A DNA stretch of 34,571 nucleotides from Candidatus Woesearchaeota archaeon (GCA_043803105.1 JAZDKJ010000007.1:1-34571), one strand, 5' to 3'. Counted from the first letter of the stretch, positions 11,482 to 30,757 are shown. Numbers and translations: made by a program. The notes: generated from the letters alone by a model not told the origin.

Positions 11482-11494
11482 TGGGGCTGTAGTG
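11482..11494 (+). repeat. 13-bp copy of the tRNA-Pro 5' end (putative att site)
   Basis: TGGGGCTGTAGTG is identical to 13022-13034 and is preceded by a BRE/TATA-like AAAGAATTTATAA at about 11429-11441. Confidence 0.65.
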
Positions 11495-12866: not shown

Positions 12867-13022
12867 CTTCAACGGTGCTCACTTCGTTGCGCTCCTCGAT
12901 CTTCCTCGCTGTTGCTCGTCAGAGAATTTAACACGATTAGTTCATCGCAACCTTTTTAACGCCTTGCCAGTTAGCCGTAGCAGGAAGGTCATACAACAGT
13001 GTGGCTTTCCACTTCAACCTAT

Positions 13023-13290
13023 GGGGCTGTAGTGTAGCTTGGACAGAACAAGCTTGGTCTTGCTCTGGAGATACTATCACTCACGCTTGGGGAGCAATCC
13101 CAGAATGCGTGCAACCGGAGTTCGAACAGCTTTTTTTGCTTCGCAAAAACCCAAAGAAAACCGAGGGTTTTCTTGGGCCCATCCGAATTGTTGAATTCGG
13201 ATAGGGAACCTGGGAAAAGGCTTTTTTCCTCGACGGAAAAAAGAACGGTTTTGCAGCGTCAAGAGAAGCTCGAAAGTCTTCGCAGCCCCA
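13023..13290 (+). tRNA. tRNA-Pro(GGG) with three introns (D-loop about 13043-13073; 37/38 at 13093-13105; 59/60 at 13127-13276)
   Basis: The spliced 74-nt sequence GGGGCTGTAGTGTAGCTTGG|CTATCACTCACGCTTGGGG|TGCGTGCAACCGGAGTTCGAA|TCTTCGCAGCCCCA folds as a complete cloverleaf. BHB-type motifs occur at the junctions. The D-loop boundaries are the least certain. Confidence 0.9.
13127..13276 (+). other. 150-nt structured BHB intron at tRNA position 59/60
   Basis: Strict BHB: TTCG/CGAA central helix, AA|C and AG|T bulges, outer helix AGCTTTTTTTG/CAAGAGAAGCT, plus several internal hairpins. Confidence 0.85.
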
Positions 13291-13669
13291 TTTTTTTTCT
13301 ACCAATTGGTGACTAGCAAAAGAGCTTAAGTCAAAGCTTGACAGTTTCTTCGAGTCGTAGGGTATGTCTTCAAACAGCATATTTCCTGCAAAAAAGAATA
13401 ACCTATTTTCTCTTGAACTCTTCTAGCCAATGTCCATAAAGTCTTAACAGATTGCCCATACAGGTCGTTATGGCTTGCCATTATAGTTATCATATTATAT
13501 AAATGATACCGAGGTAAAAGAGGTCTGCACATTCTCAGTGGATAAGATTATTACGCCGAATCTAACTGGCCTGCGACGAGATGATAGATAAGAAAGATAT
13601 TTCTGAATACAAGTTATTTCCTTTTGACAAGAAGAATTGAATCTCAACAAATAACTTCTTATTTATTGA

Positions 13670-15343: not shown

Positions 15344-15392
15344 TCTTCGCAGCCCTATTATTTTTCTACCAATTGGTGACTAGGCAAAGAGC
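15344..15392 (+). repeat. attR-like copy of the tRNA-Pro 3' end and trailer
   Basis: TCTTCGCAGCCCTATTATTTTTCTACCAATTGGTGACTAGGCAAAGAGC versus 13277-13325. Confidence 0.88.
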
Positions 15393-19729: not shown

Positions 19730-20260
19730 TTATCTCTTGTTCCCGAAATAAAAGAACTTATCCAAAGCAACATCATCAGACTTATACGAGCCTGACCTTG
19801 GATGATCAACAAGGGCTGGCCTCGGCTGCTCCATTGGCGAGGTGAATCCCCTAGGATGCTGCACAACCTCTGGCTGAGGCATAGGTATGACTGTGTCCTT
19901 TGTGCTGTCAATCTCCTCAGGCTTGATGTGCTTTGGCGCCTGCTGCTTTATTCCCTCAACAGCCTGCCAGAGCTGCTTTAACTCAGACTTCAAGCTCTCA
20001 TGGCTTTCTGATACCCTTTTGAGCTCGTTGTTCAACCCTTCAGAGGCATTAGCCAGGTGGTGGCGGATGCGCTCATCAATAAGCTGGCGCACCCGATCAC
20101 CCTCCTTAGCTAAAACTACTGATGCGGTTGTTTCGGGAAGGCCTTCCTCATACACATTGCCTGCCATCGCTACAGCATCGTCAAAACTGGAGGCTGCACC
20201 TGTCCTCGTCAACTCCTTAATCATGAAGTTGAGCTTCTTGGTCTGTTCTATATCAATCAT
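19730..20260 (-). CDS. hypothetical coiled-coil protein directly downstream of ftsZ
   Basis: Starts 10 nt after the ftsZ stop. Coiled coil, Pro-rich linker and an aromatic C-terminal tail DVALDKFFYFGNKR. Confidence 0.75.
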   Translation of the reverse strand: MIDIEQTKKLNFMIKELTRTGAASSFDDAVAMAGNVYEEGLPETTASVVLAKEGDRVRQLIDERIRHHLANASEGLNNELKRVSESHESLKSELKQLWQAVEGIKQQAPKHIKPEEIDSTKDTVIPMPQPEVVQHPRGFTSPMEQPRPALVDHPRSGSYKSDDVALDKFFYFGNKR

Positions 20261-30535: not shown

Positions 30536-30757
30536 GCCGTGGTGGCACAACCTGGTACTGCGCAAGCCTGGAACCTACGTTCGAAAGCTTGTGGCCGCAA
30601 GGCTTTCCCGGACAGCTTTTTTCCATAGGAAAAAACCTGGGAAAAGACATCGCTTGTTTAAGCGAGTTTGTCTTTTTTCATGGTATTCGAGAGAATGGCT
30701 GGGGGAATTCAAAGGTCTTGGGGCAACGCCCCGGACAAGAAAGTCCGGGCCACGGCG
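30536..30757 (+). tRNA. tRNA-Ser(GGA) with three introns (37/38 at 30574-30585; 53/54 at 30612-30707; 59/60 at 30714-30743)
   Basis: The spliced 84-nt sequence GCCGTGGTGGCACAACCTGGTACTGCGCAAGCCTGGAA|AGCTTGTGGCCGCAAGGCTTTCCCGG|TTCAAA|TCCGGGCCACGGCG forms a cloverleaf with a long variable arm and G73. A TTATTAAA promoter lies about 25 nt upstream. Confidence 0.9.

Follow-up and report, generated by a model that had tools for sequence, protein, structure and literature searches.

A predicted tRNA-Pro(GGG) gene with three introns in a woesearchaeote, and a repeated hairpin element that appears to supply its long T-loop intron

Can a segment of DNA that would lose nearly three quarters of its length by splicing be a working tRNA gene, and where would its longest intron have come from? 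The question is raised by positions 13023-13290 of a 34,571-nt stretch of Candidatus Woesearchaeota archaeon DNA (GCA_043803105.1, JAZDKJ010000007.1:1-34571; hereafter the window). A first-pass annotation, made from the sequence alone, had proposed here a cryptic tRNA-Pro(GGG) gene in four exons, whose 74-nt cloverleaf appears once introns of 31 nt in the D-loop, 13 nt between positions 37 and 38 (37/38) and 150 nt between positions 59 and 60 of the T-loop (59/60) are removed, so that about 72% of the gene would be intron. The proposal is borne out by ARAGORN on the spliced sequence and by relatives in other genomes, and its coordinates and sizes hold. Judged by sequence comparison, the segment is a genuine tRNA-Pro(GGG) gene with three predicted introns. 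Two results go beyond the earlier proposal: the long intron is a copy of a repeated, tRNA-associated hairpin element, which is a new finding, and most tRNA genes of this genome appear to be interrupted in the same way.

The gene lies on the plus strand and spans 268 nt, with exons of 20, 19, 21 and 14 nt (74 nt together) and three introns that account for 194 of the 268 nt. Direct reading of the sequence shows a 7-base strand opening at 13023, whose perfect complement closes at 13289 and is followed by an A and a run of eight T, as well as a 5-bp anticodon stem with a loop containing TTGGGG and a T-loop, TTCGAA, interrupted past its sixth base. Exon 1 (13023-13042) holds the 5' strand of the acceptor stem, U8, the 5' strand of the D-stem and the D-loop through G18 G19, and is identical or nearly so to the 5' ends of relatives' tRNA-Pro genes. 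Intron 1 (13043-13073, 31 nt) follows G19 in the D-loop, where a relaxed bulge-helix-bulge (BHB) motif was scored and an intron-free relative is available for comparison. Exon 2 (13074-13092) completes the D-loop and the D-stem and continues through the 5' strand of the anticodon stem and positions 32-37, with the anticodon GGG and G37. It is separated by intron 2 (13093-13105, 13 nt), placed at the canonical 37/38 position by its BHB score, from exon 3 (13106-13126), which carries position 38, the 3' strand of the anticodon stem, a 4-nt variable region, the 5' strand of the T-stem and T-loop positions 54-59. Intron 3 (13127-13276, 150 nt) interrupts the T-loop at 59/60 with a strict hBHBh' motif and a multibranch interior, as seen in motif score and fold. 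Exon 4 (13277-13290) provides position 60, the 3' strands of the T-stem and acceptor stem and the discriminator A73; the CCA end is not encoded. All seven acceptor pairs between exons 1 and 4 are Watson-Crick.

ARAGORN identified the spliced 74-mer as a tRNA-Pro(ggg) of 74 bases, while the same exon and intron geometry imposed at 20,000 random places of the genome gave no tRNA call. The spliced cloverleaf has a 7-bp acceptor stem and D, anticodon and T arms, with U8, A14, G18 G19, A21, U33, G53 T54 T55 C56 A58 and C61 all in place; its irregularities are a U-U pair between positions 13 and 22 and a G-U pair in the T-stem. The unspliced gene was missed both by ARAGORN in a scan of the window and by Rfam at gathering level, as the first-pass annotation had expected of standard tools (here ARAGORN and Rfam/Infernal). 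Even when Rfam matches with E up to 10 were admitted over 12900-13400, the five weak matches obtained included no tRNA.

We then compared the spliced sequence with relatives, through a locus search of 61 genomes of the same order and a pattern search of five genomes, together with reading of the loci. Two genomes from two other families of the order carry a tRNA-Pro(GGG) with a single intron, at 59/60. The gene of G051 has a 44-nt intron and matches our spliced sequence at 67 of 74 positions, its differences being mostly paired changes in the anticodon stem. That of G143 has a 31-nt intron, matches at 68 of 74 positions and has an uninterrupted anticodon loop equal to the spliced loop here. 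The variable region and T-arm are identical in both Pro(GGG) genes, and their 59/60 introns are unrelated to intron 3. Three tRNA-Pro(CGG) genes complete the comparison: those of G048 (66/74; 56.8 bits against the Rfam tRNA model) and G050 (62/74; 49.7 bits) have no introns, and that of G045 (63/74) has a 31-nt intron at the same D-loop site. Across families, the exons are thus conserved and the introns differ in length and content. The identity of the gene is confirmed by these near-identical tRNA-Pro genes that lack one or more of the introns, independently of how the splice motifs are read. A different product, tRNA-Asp(gtc), was also considered; it is obtained when only the T-loop intron is excised, and again from ARAGORN at a lowered threshold. 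It was rejected, as it needs a misplaced 24-nt 'intron' and an over-long variable arm. A single-excision census yielded only 25 matches.

The splice motifs were scored over all pairs of cut sites, with the BHB defined as a 4-bp central helix and a 3-nt bulge on each strand, cut two bases into each bulge. Within 13023-13290, 27 pairs combine a complete central helix with 2 bp or more in the outer helix and in the inner one, and the sole pair among them that reaches 5 bp or more in both is 13126|13277, the junctions of intron 3. This motif is strict, as claimed from the first reading: the central helix is complete (4/4) between two 3-nt bulges, the outer helix is the 5-bp T-stem and the inner helix has 11 bp. 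Moreover, when all 268 nt are folded together, the minimum free energy (MFE) structure (-106.0 kcal/mol) contains precisely this 59/60 BHB, along with the acceptor stem. Intron 2 also has a complete central helix (4/4, one G-U pair), with the 5-bp anticodon stem as outer helix and an inner helix of 1 bp closing a 4-nt loop.

The gene is apparently the only tRNA-Pro(GGG) gene of the genome. An intact tRNA-Pro(GGG) elsewhere, together with a lack of spliced reads, had been named at the outset as what would count against the proposal; neither blastn-short with the spliced sequence nor an expanded-loop cloverleaf census of the genome (described below) found a second locus with a GGG anticodon. Besides the four exons themselves, blastn-short matched the exon-1-like starts of Pro(CGG) and Pro(TGG), a decayed copy, two 12-nt stubs and a repeat of the 3' end. 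The decayed paralogue (G000:C6:405294-405412, minus strand, match at 405333-405404; G000 denotes this genome and C6 one of its contigs) keeps the intron sites of the D-loop and of 37/38; its anticodon reads GAG, its anticodon stem contains a mismatch, and at these coordinates a 3' exon is not recognisable. A regular-expression scan for GGG anticodon arms was too permissive to inform (2,197 matches).

Intron 3 is a highly structured sequence. Folded alone it reaches -59.4 kcal/mol (z = -5.3; none of 200 shuffles folds as well), with a closing stem and several hairpins in the multibranch arrangement that had been described from the first reading. The absence of a C/D box, also remarked then, was confirmed by reading 13127-13276, where neither TGATGA (C box, RUGAUGA) nor CTGA (D box) occurs. 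No Rfam family matches the intron at gathering level, the sole snoRNA-like match being on the other strand (14.7 bits, E 9.3), and Pfam gave no match for the open reading frames (ORFs) that overlap the region, of which the longest, of 99 aa, is on the minus strand; the first reading had reported no visible ORF. The Phe(GAA) gene at C12:181423-181652, called by ARAGORN after splicing, carries a close copy of the intron. Its 93-nt T-loop intron is identical to intron 3 over the first 23 nt (23/23) and 87% identical over 71 nt at the end, with only the middle 57 nt of intron 3 missing, yet the tRNA bodies of the two genes have just 45 of 79 aligned positions in common.

BLAST and nhmmer searches against the genome showed that intron 3 is not unique. 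It shares with other sites a module laid out as CAGC, a T-run, one or more hairpins, an A-run and CCTGGGAAAA. A two-motif scan found 18 copies in the genome: 11 short ones (32-35 nt), one of 48 nt and six long ones (81-94 nt), which carry two extra hairpins. The copy at 13127-13218 (plus strand) is a long form, in which CAGC, the T-run and hairpin 1 are followed by two more hairpins and then AACCTGGGAAAA; these 92 nt are followed by a last 58 nt that pairs back to the start of the intron as the BHB inner helix. Five copies lie inside introns of genes that ARAGORN accepts once spliced, at 59/60 in Pro-GGG, Pro-CGG, Leu-TAA and Phe-GAA and in the D-loop in Ser-GCT, and three are found no more than 30 nt from an accepted tRNA gene (Gly-GCC, Ala-CGC and Thr-CGU). 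Several further copies stand in tRNA-like contexts, judged by eye only, and copies occur outside tRNA genes and in both orientations. The intron bases that face T-loop positions 54-57 vary with the host loop, pairing as CGAA/TTCG in Pro-GGG and Leu, TGAA/TTCA in Phe and TGGA/TCCA in Pro-CGG. Such change in step with the host T-loop is what selection for the splice motif predicts. As a possible mover, we considered a Y1 transposase (IS200/IS605 type), and rejected it: the Y1_Tnp gene of the genome (C6:210483-210827) is flanked by a different hairpin and no module copy. A TnpB-like domain gave a single match, below threshold.

The module extends beyond this genome. A strict version of the pattern occurs in 10 of 201 sampled genomes of the order, with 17 copies in this genome, 15 in G143, 5 in G059 and one or two in each of the others, and the reversed pattern, used as a control, matched in none of the 201; as only the strict pattern was used, this distribution is a lower bound. 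The same pattern has no copy in G001, a genome of the same genus. In other genomes the module often stands directly 3' of GGTTCRAA or GGTTCRAAT, that is, in a T-loop, and in G186 a different tRNA is interrupted at 59/60 by a 145-nt intron with the same arrangement of three hairpins. RNAalifold, applied to eight long forms from three genomes, predicted 18 pairs, 12 of which show compensatory changes; the third hairpin failed to align. A literature search, which covered articles without their supplements, found no description of a T-loop intron family or module in Woesearchaeota, although the Figure 7 tables of PMC5829648 and the supplements of a 2026 preprint (10.64898/2026.10.13.758758) could hold cases.

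We further investigated whether interrupted tRNA genes are common in this genome, which measures 1.56 Mb in 13 contigs and is 96% complete. ARAGORN reported nine tRNAs, and Rfam six above threshold (15 matches at E up to 1). The expanded-loop cloverleaf search started from 2,305 acceptor/T-arm combinations, which gave 396 full candidates and, after splicing, 13,233 variants; ARAGORN accepted 586 of these, at 34 loci. At 14 of the 34 loci every intron has at least three of the four central pairs, and 11 of these 14 have a T-loop intron of 15-150 nt, the longest being those of Pro(GGG) (150 nt), Leu(TAA) (133 nt) and His (91 nt). Many of the 34 loci have poor splice motifs and are probably false. 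The search was also strict and incomplete, missing Pro(CGG) and Phe(GAA), which were confirmed separately.

The enzymes that such genes would require are encoded in the genome. There is one gene for the splicing endonuclease EndA (G000:C4:37141-37623; L016:1474-2085, minus strand), a single ORF of 203 aa in which both Pfam domains are present and whose N-terminal tail is rich in lysine. Its best relatives of solved structure are the Nanoarchaeum alpha subunit and the homotetramer enzyme of M. jannaschii, and of its five nearest relatives in public genomes four are labelled Candidatus Woesearchaeota and one Nanoarchaeota. A match to the ligase RtcB lies at G000:C6:10055-11377 (L017; E 1.5e-165). 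According to PMC5829648, single-subunit EndAs occur in DPANN lineages with many disrupted tRNA genes, a DPANN-specific EndA loop exists, and for some DPANN genomes prediction failed to give a full tRNA set.

Altogether, it is very probable that the locus is a working and apparently the only tRNA-Pro(GGG) gene of this DPANN archaeon, with three BHB introns, the 150-nt one drawn from a mobile or formerly mobile family. We propose that a single precursor of about 300 nt would run from a putative promoter, a TATA-like box (T5AA) read at 12951-12960, some 65 nt before the mature 5' end, to a putative terminator, the T8 run at 13291-13298 directly past the discriminator (both on the plus strand); oligo-T acts as a terminator in archaea. 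The introns would fold with the neighbouring exons into BHBs in the D-loop after G19, at 37/38 and in the T-loop at 59/60. Cloverleaf, motifs and enzyme genes are seen in the DNA; from these, EndA would excise the introns and RtcB would join the exons, after which the 74-nt tRNA would receive its CCA. The excised intron would, by analogy with other archaea, probably be freed in circular form, with no proven function. At the DNA level, the intron family would have been copied between tRNA genes and tolerated wherever the product still splices. Since the module is found at 59/60 of tRNA genes of several identities and in several families, and also beside tRNA genes, a mobile or formerly mobile intron family is the most likely source. 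That this family is structured, non-coding and still active, homing to 59/60 whatever the tRNA identity, adapting its last bases to the host loop and sometimes duplicating the tRNA 3' end, is a more tentative proposal, to which we lend slightly less belief than doubt.

Several observations weigh against this account. The motif of intron 1 is relaxed, with three of four central pairs, a 3-bp outer helix and a 4-bp inner helix, and when junctions were shifted by up to 2 nt, 2,573 of 15,625 variants were still called Pro(ggg) by ARAGORN. Because of this tolerance, the exact junctions rest on motif geometry and relatives, and that in the D-loop, where the motif is relaxed, rests on the intron-free relatives rather than on the motif: once intron 1 is taken out, the D-loop is the same as in G050, whose tRNA-Pro(CGG) has no introns, and the same site is occupied in this genome's own Pro(CGG) (24 nt) and in G045 (31 nt). 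Runs of T inside intron 3 (T7 at 13131-13137 and T6 at 13222-13227) might truncate the precursor, as such runs resemble archaeal termination signals. The only EndA is of the single-subunit kind, long held to cut strict motifs only, despite the many non-canonical and relaxed motifs, and the RtcB match contains one in-frame TAG. As for mobility, no known mobility enzyme was found for the module, and there is no target duplication at the Pro(GGG) copy. Nor is there an empty site for this gene: no Pro(GGG) was found in the same-genus genome G001 (84% complete). As 59/60 is occupied in the Pro(GGG) of three families, it may be an old intron position at which nothing but the content was exchanged.

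The strong fold of intron 3 (z = -5.3) could instead mark an RNA that the host uses, a stable structured circle serving as guide, scaffold or protein-binding RNA, with a core made of the conserved flanks CAGC, U-run ... A-run, CCUGGGAAAA. Its hairpins covary among copies and genomes (12 of 18 pairs), module ends are conserved in 10 of 201 genomes around a variable interior, and a stable, functional circular intron is known from tRNA-Trp, where it holds a C/D box RNA (PMC3326292). The covariation, however, would be kept equally by an element that needs its hairpins at the DNA level, and intron 3 has neither C/D boxes nor an Rfam family. Copies outside tRNA genes, in either orientation, could not be released by splicing, and the distribution is patchy, with no strict copy in same-genus G001 and no module in the Pro(GGG) genes of G051 and G143. 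We regard a host function as the main role of the intron as improbable.

Doubt may also fall on the gene itself, which could be a decaying, non-functional tRNA-Pro copy, another tRNA reading the proline codons that end in U or C. Decay of a Pro gene copy is indeed seen elsewhere in the genome (C6:405294-405412), as are stubs of Pro ends, T-runs in the intron could halt transcription, and the Pro(CGG) gene has C for U at position 55. But the cloverleaf is intact, with 7/7 acceptor pairs and the central helices of all three BHBs kept, and its 67-68 of 74 identities to orthologues from other families come with paired stem changes. Furthermore, no other gene with a GGG anticodon was found in the genome, and introns in other tRNA genes present as single copies begin with the same T-run. 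Decay therefore seems very improbable to us. The T7 run starts 5 nt past the 5' splice site, which would also suit expression in pieces: the 5' part would end at T7, and the 3' exon, transcribed from a second start, would be joined in trans through the inner helix, as in split tRNAs. At 11 bp, this helix is about the size of those that join split tRNA halves. Yet no TATA-like box is visible inside intron 3, the contiguous 268-nt MFE fold already has the acceptor stem and the 59/60 BHB, and the orthologues carry short, ordinary introns at 59/60, so that a split gene is hardly credible here.

A gene spliced from one precursor, as we favor, belongs to a known class. Thermoproteales have up to three introns per tRNA gene and introns common to tRNAs of different identity (PMC4033280, PMC4090602), and multi-intron tRNA genes are listed for ARMAN (PMC4033280). 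The gene resembles these multi-intron genes of Thermoproteales and ARMAN/DPANN (Sugahara 2008 and Fujishima 2011, cited in PMC4033280 and PMC5829648) in its three introns at 37/38 and in the D- and T-loops, its strict and relaxed BHBs, its predicted removal by EndA and its being missed by gene finders. It differs in its woesearchaeote host, its single-subunit EndA gene and the 72% of its length that is intron. The remark in the first-pass annotation that such introns are usually short fits a 2014 review, which gives archaeal tRNA introns as 11-129 nt with medians of 12-25 nt (PMC4090602); the 150-nt T-loop intron exceeds that range. The gene is thus an ordinary, if extreme, member of the multi-intron class, while the intron family is new in phylum, structure and site preference.

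For that family, the closest parallel is with the transposing introns described for Thermoproteales (PMC4090602, PMC4033280), in which similar introns sit in less similar tRNA bodies, as in Pro-GGG, Phe-GAA, Pro-CGG and Leu-TAA here. Unlike those, the woesearchaeote family belongs to another phylum, has a long structured module with conserved ends and variable interior, strongly prefers 59/60, and occurs as well next to tRNA genes, in tandem arrangement with stubs of tRNA 3' ends, and in several families of the order. Excised archaeal introns are circularised, and the tRNA-Trp intron, which contains a box C/D RNA and measures 105 nt in Haloferax and 65 nt in Sulfolobus, is a stable circle (PMC3326292). 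Like it, intron 3 is a BHB intron of unusual length, folds by itself and would leave as a circle; unlike it, intron 3 has no C/D boxes and no guide-like match, sits in the T-loop rather than at 37/38, and is a dispersed repeat rather than a gene-specific guide.

If the reading is right, no gene other than this one was found to read the proline codons that end in U or C. As two widely used gene finders overlook it, automatic annotation would report an essential tRNA as lacking. The long intron ties this one gene to a dispersed repeat that favors one exact tRNA site across tRNA identities, and the paired changes in its hairpins and splice-motif bases offer material for asking how protein-spliced introns enter tRNA genes. 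How archaeal tRNA introns are gained is still described as open in a 2026 preprint on Asgard tRNA introns (10.64898/2026.10.13.758758). Intron 3 may illustrate how they spread, and a family that homes to 59/60 would, if true, give a concrete and traceable route of intron gain. In addition, the genome appears to handle relaxed motifs with a single-subunit EndA, which would bear on the co-evolution of substrate range and intron load.

The flanks of the gene hold traces of duplication. Exon 4 and 35 nt of downstream flank (13277-13325) recur as a direct repeat of 49 nt (92% identity, by sequence comparison) at 15344-15392 on the plus strand. The left edge of the repeat is exactly the junction of intron 3 and exon 4, and the two copies are spaced by 2,067 nt. 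The interval contains two ORFs of the PRC-barrel kind and one VTT/DedA membrane ORF; no integrase was found in it. The downstream copy has drifted: its acceptor strand carries a single C to T substitution, and its T-run is interrupted. This looks like an old insertion into the 3' end of the tRNA. It recalls the tRNA disruption of Caldiarchaeum subterraneum, where inserted DNA is accompanied by a duplicated gene piece (Sugahara et al. 2012, PMC3293823), as does the exon 4 repeat 2 kb downstream here; in contrast to that case, the repeat brackets three ordinary-looking genes without an integrase, and the order of parts does not fit a single integration. A single event delivering both intron 3 and the 49-nt repeat was rejected, as it would have put the module before the second repeat copy and not the first. 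In G143, locus L032 (G143:C6:10325-13390) contains an array of four or more units in tandem, spaced for the most part by about 97 nt and each made of a 66-nt module copy and a truncated tRNA 3' end; the array ends in a full tRNA 3' half on the other strand. Module insertion seems to be accompanied by duplication of the tRNA part beyond the T-loop. On the upstream side, the leader (12950-13022) together with exon 1 matches the Pro(CGG) region at G000:C6:403855-403948 (leader part 403876-403948) with 88% identity over 94 nt, and the last 20 nt of the tRNA-Pro leader are also conserved in G001 (L002).

Some further tRNA-like loci were noted along the way. The three-intron tRNA-Pro(CGG) gene of this genome (G000:C6:403600-404010, minus strand; L053) has a C at T-loop position 55, where U is near-universal; the intron base facing C55 is changed as well, which preserves the central helix of the BHB. 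The Pro(CGG) gene of same-genus G001 has a normal T-loop and neither a D-loop nor a T-loop intron, while that of this genome has both, a difference within one genus that speaks for recent gain or loss. An intron-free 'tRNA-Pro(tgg)' reported by ARAGORN at G000:C6:92591-92668 matches the Pro family at only 42 of 81 aligned positions; this call is probably false, and the genuine Pro(TGG) seems to be the two-intron gene at C6:393932-394048. Within the window, a tRNA-like gene missed by ARAGORN and Rfam lies at 30536-30757, with a Ser-like 5' part and a short module copy at 30613-30645. Finally, a 12-nt copy of the tRNA-Pro 5' end occurs at 11483-11494, 1.5 kb upstream of the gene and about 40 nt past a TATA-like TTTATAA; it may be a stub left when the 5' end was duplicated, or may match by chance (about 0.2 such matches are expected per genome).

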